From: an uncultured Acidobacteriota bacterium
Lineage (GTDB): Bacteria > Acidobacteriota > Thermoanaerobaculia > UBA5066 > Gp7-AA6
NCBI GenBank assembly: GCA_963829925.1
Contig: CAWHKQ010000011.1
Span: 3,337 to 67,336, forward strand
Direction of reading: 5' to 3'
Length of the DNA stretch: 64,000 nt
The first letter of the stretch is position 1, and each line of letters starts with the position of its first letter. This document shows, one piece after another, positions 7,878-22,176 of this stretch. A program made the position numbers and the translations under genes. Below the pieces are notes generated by a model. It was not told the origin of the DNA. It did not search any database and saw nothing but the letters and a program-made list of their open reading frames with translations.

Positions 7878-8098
7878 CGTCGCCTACCGTCGCCTCCGCT
7901 CGTACGGGATCTGCCGCCTTCGGCGGCACCGGCCCGCGGCTCGCCTGTGGGCTCGACCGCGGGCCTGGTCCCTCCCTCGCTGCGGCTCCCGCGGCGCGAG
8001 GCGTCCTCCGCTGCGCTGGCGGAGATAAACGCCGTGCGTCGCGCGACGTTGCCTACGGCCGGGGGTCTGCCTTCGGTGGTCGGCTGCCTCGCGCCGCG
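7878..8098 (+). repeat. Structured intergenic repeat, copy A (multi-hairpin, REP/MITE-like)
   Basis: Near-identical to 21794-21939 and to the reverse complement of 22024-22176. Hairpins tgccgcc-ttc-ggcggca and ggcccgcgg...ccgcgggcc, and a terminal stem cgcggcgcgaggc...gcctcgcgccgcg. Confidence 0.85.
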
Positions 8099-8135
8099 TA
8101 CAGAATCGCCAGAATGGCGCGCGAGTCTCTTTGCC

Positions 8136-8175
8136 TGTCATCCCGAGCCCGAGCGGAGCGAGGGAGAGGGATCCC
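8136..8175 (+). repeat. Single arm of a CGTC/TGTC-type palindromic repeat
   Basis: tgtcatcccgagcccgagcggagcgagggagagggatccc matches the left arm of 48614-48707. Confidence 0.65.
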
Positions 8176-8213
8176 GGACTCGACTCGTGAAACCCCCTCA
8201 GGCTCCTCGCCTG

Positions 8214-10327
8214 TTAGAGTCTCTTCGCCGCCAGCAGCAGCACGTCGCGCGGGCCCGGGGCGACCCCGGCCTTCTTCCACTCGGAGACCAGCCCGGCGAA
8301 GGCCGCCGAAAGAGGCTGGGTCTCGGCGGCGCGGGCGAGCTTCTGAACCGCCTTCTCGGCCGAGGGCGGCCGCCCCCCGGAGACCAGCCGGACGAGCCCC
8401 GCGAGACCCCAGAATGAGCAGATCTCTCCGGGCGGTCTCGAGCGTGGCTTCGCGGACTCCGGCGGACTCGCGGACCTCGAAGGGAACGGGGCGCCCGAAG
8501 CGGAGGAGACACGGCACCGGCGCCTCGCGGGCCGCCAGCGAGGGGCGTTCTCCGTCCCAGCGCGCCGCCGTGACCGCGCAGCCCGGGTCCGCTTCCCGGC
8601 TGCTGCGGACGACTCCGCCGCGGTGGCGGTCGGCAGGCGGGCGCGGGCCGAGGCTCGCGACGCGCGGACGAGCGCGCCGACGGAGTCCTCGATCTCGCGC
8701 CTGTCCTCGAGGAGGAGAAAAGCCAGAACTCGGGCCCGGCCTCGACGGCATAGAGCGCCAGGCTGGGCTCCTCCGACCTCCATCGCAGCGGCGCCGACTC
8801 GAAGCCCGGAGTGTCGGGCCAGGAGGCGGGCAGCAGCAGCGGCGAGACGCCGCTTCAGGACGTCCGCGGCGCCCTCGCGGCGGGCCTTGCGGACGGCGCG
8901 CTCGTGCTCGCGCACGCTCTCGACGGCGAGGGCGGCGTGCGTGCCGACCTCGGCGAGAAACTCCTCGTCTTCCTTGGTGAAGTTGCGCCGCCGCTTGTTC
9001 AGGATCTCGACGACGCCGACGATCTCGCCGCGCGGCGTGCGCATGGGAGCGGCCAGGATGGACATGCGTCGTGAAGCCGGAGGACGCGTCGGTGCGCTTG
9101 TCGAAGCGCGCGATCGCGGTAGGCGTCCACGCAGTTGACCATCTGGCCCGTCTTGGCGACCGTCCCGGCGATTCCCGTCCCGACGCGGAGCCGGATCGGG
9201 TTGACGGAGCCGCCCTCGAGGATCTGGCTGACGAGCTCGTCCGAGTCCGGGTCGCTTCAGGAAGATGGTCCCGCGCTCGGCGTCGGTCTCCGAGGTCGCG
9301 GTCCTGAGGATGATGCGCAGCGTCTCGGTCGGGTCGAAGGTCGCGGCCAGCGACTTGTTGGCCTCGAGAATGACCATCAGCTTGACCATCTTGGCCCGCG
9401 TCACGGAGACCTCGGCGAGCACGCGGTCGAGGACCTGGCCCTCGAAGGCGGAGATCGCGTCGGAGAGGGCGGTGGCGTCGGCGAAGCGCGACTCGGGATC
9501 CTTCGCGATGGCGCGCTCGAGGATGTCCCGCAGCTCGGGCGGCAGATCCGGCCGCAGCGCTCTCGACCTTCGGGCGGCGCTTCCGAGATGACCCGGCGCA
9601 CGAGCTTCGCGCGGTGTCGTTGTCGTCGAACGGCACGCGGCCCGTGAACATCTCGAAGAGGAGAACGCCCATCGCGTAGACGTCGGTGCCGCTGCGTCGG
9701 CATGTCGCCCTGCAGAAGCTCGGGAGCCAGGAACTGCGGGCGTGTCCGGGGACCGTGTCGCCGTTCTCGCCGCGGTAGAGCGCCGCTCTCGACGGCGATG
9801 CCGAAGTCCATGAGGCGCGGCTTCGCCGTCTTCGCCGACGATCACGTTCTCGGGCTTGAGGTCGCGGTGCAGGACGCCGATCCGGTGCGCGGCCGCGAGC
9901 CCGCTGCAGATGCCCTTGGCGATCGCGAGCCCGCGCCCGAGCGGAAGCATGCGCTCGCGCTCCTCGAGTCCTTGAGCGTGCGGCCGGCGAGGTACTCCAT
10001 CGACACGAACTCTTCGCCCTCGATCTCGACGAGGTCGTAGACGCGGCAGACGTTTTCGTGCGTGACCTTGCGCGACAGGATGATCTCGCGGCGCAGGGTC
10101 TCCCGCCGCTCCGGCGAGACGCGGTCCGGCCGGATGCGCTTCAGCGCGATCTCCTGGTCGAGCTTCAGGTCCCGGGCCCGGTAGACGACGCCCATCCCGC
10201 CGAACCCGAGCACGGCGTCGATGCGATAGCGTCCGCCGAGGATCGTCCCGACCGTGACGGGGGCCTCCCGCAAGGGAGCTCCCACGGTCGAACCGTCGCG
10301 CGCCGGGAGCTTGCTGTCGTGGGACAA
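8214..10327 (-). CDS. Ser/Thr protein kinase-GAF-degenerate SpoIIE/PP2C-like domain protein; frameshifted
   Basis: Kinase motifs LGFGGMGVVY, ALK, HRDLKPENV, DFG, FLAPE. GAF motifs ILRTATSETDAERGTIF and PMRTPRGEIVGVVEILNK. The C-terminus resembles a SpoIIE-type phosphatase tail. Confidence 0.85.
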
Positions 10328-10468
10328 GGTGACTTGATTCTAAGCCGCGGCGGAAGCCCGGCTTCGCGGTTGACGGCTCAGGGTTTACGTCATAGATTGC
10401 CGGACTAGCGTGCGAAGCTTCCATCCCGCCTTGAGCATTCCGCGGCGAAAACTTGAGGGAGGAGAATC

Positions 10469-21153: not shown

Positions 21154-21729
21154 ATGAAGCCTCTGACCGCCTCCGACATCTCCAACCTCCACGAGTACGA
21201 GCTCGAGCGGCCGGCTTTCCGGAGCCGCGTCATCGAGAAGAAGAAACGCAGGAGAGTCGGCCTGGGCCCCCTGATGACGCTCGTGTTCGAGGACCGGGAC
21301 ACGATCCGCTTCCAGATCCAGGAAATGCTGCGGGTCGAGCGGATCGTGCAGCCGGACAAAGTGCAGCACGAGATCGAGACCTACAACGCGCTGCTGCCGG
21401 GCGCCGGAGAAGTCGCCGCCACGCTCTTCATCGAGATCACCGACCCCGCGCGCGTGCAGGAGGTCCTGGACGGCTTCGTCGGGCTGGACGAGCCGGGACG
21501 CCTGGCGCTGTCGGTCGGGGAGGCGACGTACCCGGCGCTCTTCGCGCCGGGCCAGAGCCGCGAGGACCGGATTTCGGCGGTGCACTACATCCGCTTCCCC
21601 GTGGGCGAGGACGGGCGCGCGGCCCTGGCCGCCGGCCGCGAGGCGGCCCTGCAGGTCGAGCACGGGGGCTACCACGCGCGGCAGGTTCTGACGAAGGAGA
21701 CCGTCGAGGAGCTGATCGGGGACTTGTAA
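21154..21729 (+). CDS. DUF3501 family protein
   Basis: YELERPAFR, IQEMLRVERI, EIETYNALLP, FIEI, SAVHYIRF; canonical position after rbr and the Fe-S oxidoreductase. Confidence 0.88.
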   Translation: MKPLTASDISNLHEYELERPAFRSRVIEKKKRRRVGLGPLMTLVFEDRDTIRFQIQEMLRVERIVQPDKVQHEIETYNALLPGAGEVAATLFIEITDPARVQEVLDGFVGLDEPGRLALSVGEATYPALFAPGQSREDRISAVHYIRFPVGEDGRAALAAGREAALQVEHGGYHARQVLTKETVEELIGDL

Positions 21730-21790
21730 CGTCGCCTACCGTCGCCTCGCTCGCTCCGGGATCTGCGGCCTTCGGCGGCACCGGCCTGCT
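21730..21790 (+). repeat. Partial (5') copy of the structured intergenic repeat
   Basis: cgtcgcctaccgtcgcct...gggatctgcggccttcggcggcaccggcctgc. Confidence 0.75.
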
Positions 21791-21793
21791 CCA

Positions 21794-21939
21794 CGTCGCC
21801 TCCGCTCGTACGGGATCTGCCGCCTGCGGCGGCACCGGCCTGCGGCTCGCCTGTGGGCTCGACCGCAGGCCTGATCCCTCCCTCGCTGCGGCTCCCGCGG
21901 CGCGGGGCTCCTCCCCTGTGGGAGACTCCCCGCGCCGCG
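21794..21939 (+). repeat. Structured intergenic repeat, copy B
   Basis: Matches copy A, with a compensatory C-G to T-A change in the central stem. Confidence 0.88.
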
Positions 21940-22023
21940 TACACGCCCACCTGTGCCGCTCGCCGACTCTTTCTTAGCCTGTCTCGAGAGCACGAGGCTT
22001 TTTGAGGCGCTGTTCGGTGAGTT

Positions 22024-22176
22024 CGCGGCGCGCGAAGTCTCCCGACGAAGGAGGGAGGAGGCGCGCGCCGCGGGAGCGAGCGCGTAGCGAAGGATCAGGC
22101 CCGCGGTCGAGCCCACAGGCGAGCCGCGGGCCGGTGCGCCCGAAGGGCGCAGATCCGAAGCGAAGCGCTCGCGACG
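22024..22176 (-). repeat. Structured intergenic repeat, copy C (inverted relative to B)
   Basis: The reverse complement reads cgtcgc...gatctgcgcccttcgggcgcaccggcccgcggctcgcctgtgggctcgaccgcgggcctg...cgcggcgcgcg...cgcgcgccgcg. Confidence 0.85.

Follow-up and report, generated by a model that had tools for sequence, protein, structure and literature searches.

A family of large folded repeats set immediately behind gene ends in one family of Thermoanaerobaculia

A 64,000-nucleotide (nt) window of DNA from an uncultured Acidobacteriota bacterium (C11:3337-67336 of the source assembly) holds several copies of a non-coding repeat with a unit size of about 165 bases (range 165-190 nt). The repeat is of the repetitive extragenic palindromic (REP), bacterial interspersed mosaic element (BIME) or MITE (miniature inverted-repeat transposable element) kind, much larger and more elaborate, and matches no named family. 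The explanation we favor, with a probability of roughly 0.6, is a non-autonomous mobile DNA repeat which needs its fold for its own spread, probably as single-stranded DNA (ssDNA), and which is placed head-first at gene ends by a factor acting in trans. Units would multiply within the genomes of one Thermoanaerobaculia family, as singles or as fixed doublets of two unit types, B and C. The fold would be retained because spread depends on it, most likely through recognition of the folded ssDNA by an enzyme supplied in trans, and new copies would be laid down head-first immediately 3′ of gene ends, with doublets taking up the whole gap between convergent genes. From the features described below we infer mobility, the ssDNA form and a target in the 5′ flank, or a core, resembling T-R-R-(C).

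The source assembly consists of 16 contigs and 3.82 Mb with 69% GC and is 57% complete. An earlier reading of the window from the sequence alone, referred to here as the original prediction, had proposed a genome-wide search for the repeat. This was carried out with iterated nhmmer and returned 103 loci, 79 of them full length, corresponding to 0.38% of the assembly; all contigs but one (15 of 16) carry dispersed copies, which follow unrelated genes, housekeeping genes among them. Each unit opens with a CGTCGC head that stays unpaired; a domain with a three-way junction comes next, then a long hairpin (P4) whose internal loop reads TCCTCC/GGAGACT, and finally a tail of 20-45 nt with a fuzzy 3′ end. 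The two main types, B (head CGTCGCCTCCGCTCGTAC) and C (head CGTCGCGAGCGCTGCGCTAC), differ in leader, stem variants and hairpin apex, and a third type has a shortened first domain. Units occur solo, as B+C tail-to-tail doublets, as 5′ stubs and as partial copies, and in relatives also as tandem arrays. The copies present in the window, with their parts and immediate neighbors, are the following.

7874-7876, + strand: native TAG stop closing the upstream gene, separated from the repeat by 1 nt; read from the sequence, the open reading frame (ORF) ending there scores as coding.
7878-7886, + strand: head stub CGTCGCCTA, 9 nt, a short duplicate of the element 5′ end in front of copy A; read from the sequence.
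7888-8098, + strand: copy A, a B-type unit with CGTCGC head, three-way-junction domain and the long hairpin P4 interrupted by a nested module.
8024-8090, + strand: nested 67-nt module, belonging to a second repeat family, in the 3′ strand of the copy A P4 internal loop.
8099-8122, + strand: copy A 3′ tail TACAGAATCGCCAGAATGGCGCGC, the fuzzy 3′ end of the unit.
21727-21729, + strand: TAA stop of gene 21154-21729, which abuts the repeat directly.
21730-21789, + strand: head stub followed by a 5′ partial copy, which covers the head and stem 1 together with the 5′ half of stem 2.
21794-21945, + strand: copy B, a B-type unit forming the left doublet arm; covariance-model match of 131 bits, E 6e-24.
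21946-22017, no strand assigned: conserved asymmetric doublet spacer made up of the B tail, a hypervariable 5-9 nt center and the C tail.
22018-22176, − strand: copy C, a C-type unit forming the right doublet arm; covariance-model match of 146 bits, E 5e-27.

The three full copies and the one 5′ partial copy of the original prediction are thus all present, as judged by reading of the sequence, repeat alignment and a covariance model, and the model recovers A, B and C as the only full copies of the window. The match to copy A (98 bits, E 1e-17) starts at 7888, and the stretch up to the closure of P4 at ~8098 was read from the sequence. Within the window, 7888-8002 and 21794-21908 (copies A and B) are 96% identical over 115 nt, while 22086-22156 of copy C is an inverted repeat of copies A and B with 87-90% complementarity over 71 nt. 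The compensatory stem variants quoted earlier are exact (TGCCGCC/GGCGGCA versus TGCGCCC/GGGCGCA; GGCCCGCGG/CCGCGGGCC versus GGCCTGCGG/CCGCAGGCC). Likewise, the reported start of copy A and of the partial copy 0-1 nt after a stop codon was found as described, with TAG and a 1-nt gap in the former case and directly after TAA in the latter. The terminal loops, taken at first to be unrelated among copies, turned out to be recurrent subfamily variants with a common TCCTCC...GGAGAYT. The loop length of copy A is due to the nested module, a sequence with 79 genomic matches (nhmmer), four of them in or beside the main family; other copies show P4 without this insert. The CGTCGCCTA stub also precedes the partial copy at 21730, such stubs are carried by about 12 of 94 genomic heads, and the arrangement of a partial copy, CCA and a full B copy recurs at five loci. 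Tails of solo copies have ...ACCNGTGCCGC.. in common for ~25 nt past P4 and then diverge. The spacer of the window doublet holds a weak hairpin followed by a T-run at 21981-22003, a pattern no commoner in the region than in shuffled sequence. The head of copy C faces the start of gene 22199-24100 at a distance of 22 nt.

The fold was derived from an alignment (A1) of 44 sequences, two of them copies from the window and 42 taken from 17 further genomes within the genus. For A1, RNAalifold predicts 44 pairs in seven helices with two branch points over a model of 165 positions: a leader/internal closing helix, a helix closing the three-way junction with its two hairpins, and P4. The internal loop of P4 is conserved and asymmetric, and the conserved P4 domain reads GCTCC-CGCGGCGCG..TCCTCC..GGAGACT..CGCGCCGCG. 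In A1, 98.1% of 1928 cells are paired, compared with 89.7% in shuffles, and 20 of the 44 pairs show double-sided changes where shuffles give 10.3; neither value was reached in any of 500 shuffles. Double-sided changes occupy 161 cells versus 44.5 in shuffles, and controls in which the pairing was slid by 1-3 columns gave at most six pairs with double changes. Since the covariation lies above all shuffles and above the slid controls, the structure claim is solid. Selection on the secondary structure of a dispersed repeat family, as originally proposed, is therefore borne out: where an absence of further copies and of covariation in a larger alignment would have spoken against it, 103 loci and 20 covarying pairs were obtained.

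Pairing is strictly of the Watson–Crick type. Six to seven G.U cells were counted in A1 against 17 A.C cells, and 72 further copies of the source genome gave 21 G.U and 25 A.C cells. Functional RNAs normally tolerate G.U pairs. When a single unit is folded as ssDNA, the two strands score almost alike (z of −6.45 and −6.14), and neither wobble pairs nor folding energy showed an asymmetry large enough to call one strand. The scarcity of G.U pairs and the equal folding of both strands point to a constraint acting at the DNA level or on both strands, and not on an RNA of one strand. The stem-1 triloops TTC and TGC correspond on the complementary strand to GAA and GCA closed by C-G, a motif of very stable DNA mini-hairpins.

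Fifty-four of the 103 loci are arranged as 27 convergent pairs with tails inward and heads outward, separated by a gap of 74-80 nt in 24 cases. All 27 are heterodimers in which a B arm is joined to a C-type (or shortened) one, for which random pairing gives P ~8e-10. Such a doublet measures ~385 nt, its arms are ~82-90% complementary to each other, and its fold is a 383-nt hairpin of −168 kcal/mol (z −14.9). The doublet spacers are alignable, conserved and asymmetric, with a hypervariable center of 5-9 nt whose variants are common to sub-lineages. This conservation, together with the distribution of the center variants, argues that the doublet is copied as a unit in which the center behaves like a hairpin loop. 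A REPIN- or BIME-like inverted-doublet form (REPINs being pairs of inverted REPs), in line with the REP/REPIN-like character originally proposed, was thus met with 27 times.

Amplification has been recent. About 20 other copies in the genome are 96-99% identical to copy B, compared with 75-85% identity in other species of the genus, and each species of the family has its own young subfamilies. Tandem head-to-tail arrays occur in relatives; in one with three units each unit follows ...ACTAAC, and in another with nine units the junctions read TTGAC, CTAAC, CTAGC or GGACC. Such stop-like TRRC sequences before heads, in arrays where no gene ends, would reflect either a flank motif at the DNA level or flanking bases copied along with the unit. 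At an orthologous gene end (...GGGTACTAG), genome G019 (locus L140) carries a four-unit array with a period of 175 and genome G006 (L141) a three-unit array with a period of 263, so that amplification at this site was independent. A further array (L142, G068:C1:530850-531850) consists of three tandem units interleaved with duplicated 5′-end fragments of a Ser/Thr protein kinase gene, with the last unit lying just upstream of the start of the intact kinase gene.

The position of the heads is the second striking property of the family. Of 94 intact 5′ ends, 57 have TAA, TAG or TGA ending 0-4 nt before CGTCGC, versus 7% of random positions. Because the gene caller was crude (73% coding), it was used solely through per-site ORF scores: 40-48 of these 57 stop triplets close an ORF of high coding score, against 0.4% at random, and for 41 out of 48 the stop and the head are separated by 0, 1 or 2 nt. 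Viewed from the genes, a head lies within 0-3 nt of 43 out of 1572 confident gene ends. The stops concerned are TAA in 21 cases, TAG in 13 and TGA in 9, while the genomic baseline is 9% TAA, 29% TAG and 62% TGA. About 12 of the remaining heads stand behind head stubs or partial copies which themselves follow a stop. The two bases before the head are AC in 38, CA in 24, AA in 12 and GC in 11 of the 94. Gene ends of other kinds are also occupied. Heads are found 3 nt after the 3′ ends of two of the 48 tRNA genes of this assembly and likewise in three other genomes, the spacing to the tRNA CCA end being 2-3 nt across four genera, and four heads lie 1-2 nt after the T-run of canonical intrinsic terminators. 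Starts directly after stop codons were noticed in the original prediction and stand; the generality and the nucleotide precision of this placement had escaped it. Repeats other than the main family can also sit flush with stops, as seen for TAG followed directly by GGGGTCAGGTCTTCATTTTTCGG in G018 and for TGA followed directly by CACGCGGCGCGAAGG...GTCATCCTGAGG in the source genome. Part of the phenomenon is thus common to several repeat families in these compact genomes.

A comparison of filled with empty orthologous sites, also proposed at the outset, could be made at the level of genes; the relatives are at most ~80% identical in protein, and their intergenic DNA is not alignable across species. 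At about 14 sites a relative carries the element where the source genome has none, and in ~13 of these the protein C-terminus is of the same length. Another four sites are filled in both genomes, some of the copies having decayed in the source genome. The idea that the element supplies the stop codon is ruled out by the C-termini of equal length in the ~13 of 14 pairs and at four doublet sites. As an exception, the protein of gene 21154-21729 ends with ...EELIGDL* at the repeat where 11 element-free orthologues carry 1-5 more residues, and here the insertion may have trimmed the end of the gene.

For the doublets, the joined 300-nt flanks of eight with both heads abutting stops were searched against the genus. 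They align as one piece in many genomes (up to 22 for one site). In twenty regions retrieved from relatives the genes are convergent with the same C-termini, and their spacers range from −4 nt (overlapping CTAG) to +46 nt, whereas the source genome retains 0-2 nt on each side of the doublet. Doublets would hence have entered spacers of near-zero length, or the native spacer was replaced. At the three sites where TAA stands beside the element in the source genome, TAG was read eight times and TGA once in orthologues that are empty. G004 has an independent insertion at one of the doublet sites, in the form of a solo unit (TAA-A-CCGTCGCC). Among the empty sites examined, convergent genes of the genus often overlap by their stops in a common CTAG (L122-L124), and empty convergent sites are strongly biased towards TAG when set against the 29% genomic usage of this stop. 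A MITE of a DDE transposon would have terminal inverted repeats and a target-site duplication; doublets possess inverted CCGTCGC ends and single units do not, and a target duplication of TA, TTAA or CTAG showed no consistent pattern at the 27 doublet flanks.

The distribution of the repeat is family-level and not class-wide. By BLAST-level search the unit is present in 24 of the 25 genomes of the genus at 75-85% identity. A covariance model (R1) run over 121 genomes sampled from the class found matches in 18, namely in all 15 sampled genomes of the same family, which cover six genera, and, more weakly, in three genomes of the sister family, from two of its genera; there were none in 12 genomes of the third family of the order or in the other sampled families of Thermoanaerobaculia. 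A class-wide distribution was thus not confirmed. Head, internal loops and P4 domain are conserved across all carrier genera and the sister family, and nearly all of these copies possess the CGTCGC head, which the consensus fold leaves unpaired. The repeat had not been recognised as a named family, and our searches agree: Rfam gave no match when the whole window was searched at gathering thresholds, nor when the limit was relaxed to E≤1 for 21650-22250, a plasmid collection gave no match, and no published description was found in the literature.

In the search for a mobiliser, several candidate enzymes were considered. The original prediction had pointed to a transposase of the HUH class such as a REP-associated tyrosine transposase (RAYT), and this link was not supported. 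The assembly has one gene of the RAYT/IS200 Y1 type (PF01797), with another repeat, GGGGTCAGGTCTGGACTTTGTCC, on its flanks. In seven genomes of the genus (the source assembly and six relatives) 19 Y1 loci were inspected, and all lack a copy of our repeat within 1.5 kb; moreover, no Y1 gene was found in three carrier genomes at least 94% complete, namely G019 (97%), G021 and G005. Reverse transcriptase (PF00078, RVT_1) is missing from 24 of the 25 genomes of the genus, which makes a retro-mechanism with a canonical reverse transcriptase unlikely. An IS91-type Y2 enzyme (PF04986) occurs in one of the 25, and the DEDD enzyme of IS110 (PF01548), considered because of the bridge-RNA idea, in six. 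A cargo transposon was rejected as well, since what lies within the tail-to-tail pair of 1.4 kb at C15:200713-202363 is a gene for a Rieske oxygenase and no transposase. As to the Y1 locus itself (L011, C13:186257-187452), the encoded protein has the HUH and Y motifs and, at its C-terminus, a weak match to a DnaA-type helix-turn-helix below the Pfam cut-off. Tandem GGGGTCAGGTCTGGACTTTGTCC copies, 3-5 of them and inverted in orientation, enclose the locus, and ~15 further GGGGTCAGGTCTGGACTTTGTCC arrays exist in the genome; together they look like a classical REP/RAYT system separate from the main repeat.

Some of these results weigh against a mobile DNA. No mobilising enzyme emerged among Y1/RAYT, Y2/IS91, IS110 and RVT_1, most carrier genomes being without them and adjacent copies being absent. 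Neither a target-site duplication nor an exact 3′ boundary could be established, and no single DNA motif covers stops, tRNA CCA ends and terminator T-runs together. G.U pairs should be equally scarce if both strands were transcribed and each transcript had to fold, and the sense orientation behind the upstream gene fits a role in the 3′ untranslated region (UTR) equally well. The latter role would belong to a cis-acting RNA module co-transcribed with the upstream gene, which would stabilise the message against 3′ exonucleases, terminate transcription or insulate between convergent genes, or form a structure to be melted by the terminating ribosome, the DNA copies being its means of spread. We consider this unlikely, but it is not exclusive of a mobile element. 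It would agree with heads that follow the stop of a co-oriented gene, so that the sense strand is co-transcribed, with unpaired nucleotides which are invariant across six genera as expected of a protein-binding site, and with empty convergent sites whose overlapping or nearly abutting genes leave no room for terminators. In addition, published REPs near stop codons have been proposed to act as RNA (PMC3733652). On the other hand, G.U pairs at ~0.3-0.7% of cells are no commoner than A.C mismatches, both strands fold equally well, four copies lie beyond canonical intrinsic terminators and two after tRNA genes, old orthologous copies decay, and Rfam has no match. A test for intrinsic terminators found no T-run after P4, the main hairpin, and just a weak 6-pair hairpin with TTTTT in the doublet center, no commoner than in shuffles. 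This weak pattern match counts in favor of the RNA module; it was all that spoke for a terminator function, which was rejected. A structured non-coding RNA or 3′ UTR element was among the possibilities first raised; selection on structure stands, while the RNA reading is weakened by the lack of G.U pairs, the copies beyond terminators and the decay of old copies.

Copying might also require no dedicated enzyme. Replication template switching or repair synthesis that copies a donor locus between short microhomologies at gene ends, the stop triplet serving on the 5′ side, with the native spacer overwritten, strikes us as rather improbable, even though it would account for the 0-2 nt left on each side of doublets compared with −4 to +46 nt at empty sites, for TAA at filled sites where empty orthologues mostly have TAG, for TRRC before heads inside arrays, for the fuzzy 3′ ends with varied downstream modules carried along, for the host gene fragments duplicated between the L142 units and for the lack of a transposase tracking the element. 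A microhomology of 3-4 nt seems too weak for ~100 copies and subfamily bursts, internal junctions in the source genome are without TRR, the placement after tRNA CCA ends and T-runs is left unexplained, and the strongly conserved unpaired loop bases suggest recognition by a protein. Slightly more doubtful still is homing of the element to the RNA 3′ ends of gene products instead of to a DNA motif, by RNA-end-guided or RNA-end-primed integration without a canonical reverse transcriptase, in which the spacer is overwritten and TAG reset to TAA. The thought arises because stops, tRNA ends and T-runs have one identified feature in common, namely that an RNA 3′ end is or can be formed there; at stop codons this would occur via A-site cleavage of the mRNA. 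A REPIN-type element moved by a RAYT (HUH Y1) is largely refuted and retains only a very small probability. It would have suited the unpaired 5′ CGTC tag, as in the CGTC-tagged REP superfamily (PMC3733652), the inverted doublets that form one long hairpin and the presence of one Y1_Tnp gene in the source assembly. That gene, however, is flanked on both sides by arrays of GGGGTCAGGTCTGGACTTTGTCC, the 19 Y1 loci lack nearby copies, three carriers do without a Y1 gene, and the published CGTC REPs are themselves without a dedicated transposase. A non-autonomous mobile DNA with a trans-acting factor is therefore the explanation we retain.

Further repeat modules lie close to the copies of the window. 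The nested module (8024-8090, + strand) contains two hairpins (GATAAACGCCGTGC..GCACGGCGTT and GCCTACTGCCGGGGGTCTGCCTTCGGTGGTCGGCTG), the second with G.T wobbles on the + strand only, and elsewhere is usually found inside a GTCATCCYGAG...GGATCCCGGACTCGAC repeat. A third module, GTCATCCCGAGCCCGAGCGGAGCGAGGGAGAGGGATCCCGGACTCGAC, follows the copy A tail at 8137-8184 (+ strand) and has related copies after other units and directly after stops. The GGGGTCAGGTCTTCATTTTTCGG repeat, with ~20 genomic copies, is present at 15109-15135 (+ strand) immediately after the TGA of gene 14047-15108; several of its copies are located 35-55 nt downstream of main-family units, and a gap between convergent genes of G018 is taken up by two inverted copies, flush with the stop.

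REP-like repeats are widespread and their spread is mostly unexplained, above all that of the CGTC-tagged ones, and the present family is unusually informative in this respect. It offers a large fold with conserved loops that could be used to fish out a protein, two arm types that are always paired in doublets, a nucleotide-precise placement where protein genes, tRNA genes and terminators end, and many filled and empty sites across ~30 genomes. The placement after stops, tRNA ends and T-runs, which goes beyond one DNA motif, is the most interesting point; if homing to RNA 3′ ends were true, it would amount to a new kind of target choice for mobile DNA. Finding the mobiliser could explain the accumulation of REP-like elements beside stop codons generally. 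These genomes are compact, their longer 3′ intergenic stretches consist mostly of such repeats, and in practical terms the repeats will confuse the annotation of terminators, small RNAs and small ORFs in metagenome bins of Thermoanaerobaculia.

In this context, a comparison with known systems is instructive. Integron attC sites are recognised as folded ssDNA, lie after the ORF stop in a cassette array and have RYYYAAC/GTTRRRY core sites. Our element resembles them as a structured, sequence-variable and fold-conserved element directly after an ORF stop, but its copies are dispersed and not arranged in a cassette array, no RYYYAAC/GTTRRRY core is seen in the alignment, and the fold is much larger. 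IS200/IS605 elements undergo Y1-dependent single-strand transposition and insert 3′ of one fixed tetra- or pentanucleotide. Miniature derivatives of such elements would share with our repeat one precise end abutting a short flank motif, the absence of a visible target duplication, hairpins that are not simple terminal inverted repeats, and Watson–Crick stems consistent with recognition as ssDNA. The differences are that several carriers are without Y1, that the 5′ flank is heterogeneous (TAAC, TGAC, TAGC, NAC, NCA) and that the 3′ end is not fixed.

The REPIN/RAYT and BIME systems of Proteobacteria (Nunvar et al. 2010, PMC2817692) are closer in form. Here as there, an inverted doublet forms a single long hairpin that acts as a unit, singlets exist beside it, the association with other repeat modules is mosaic, and subfamilies are species-specific. 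The present arms differ in being ~10 times longer, each folding on itself, in their ~82-90% complementarity, and in the lack of a RAYT association, which was tested. REPIN/RAYT systems were reportedly also treated by Bertels and Rainey in 2011.

The nearest relatives in character are the CGTC-tagged REPs, a superfamily described from five other phyla (Di Nocera, De Gregorio & Rocco 2013, PMC3733652). These are 20-40 bp long with a single 8-9 bp stem that begins with two A/T positions, a loop of 4-5 nt and a tail fitting CCA; they are apparently without a transposase of their own, and less than 20 bp separates them from the 3′ ends of ORFs (PMC3733652). Both families have an unpaired CGTC at one end, a high copy number, an extragenic location, inverted dimers and no dedicated transposase found, and in both the units are near ORF 3′ ends and, between convergent genes, near both of them. 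In contrast to the CGTC-tagged REPs, the present unit extends over ~165-190 nt with seven helices and a three-way junction, and in place of a CCA tail it has AAC, TAC or AGC after the last helix, followed by a tail of 20-45 nt. Its dimers are tail-to-tail with heads outward and combine two different subtypes, and its placement is precise to 0-2 nt where that of the published repeats is given as "<20 bp".

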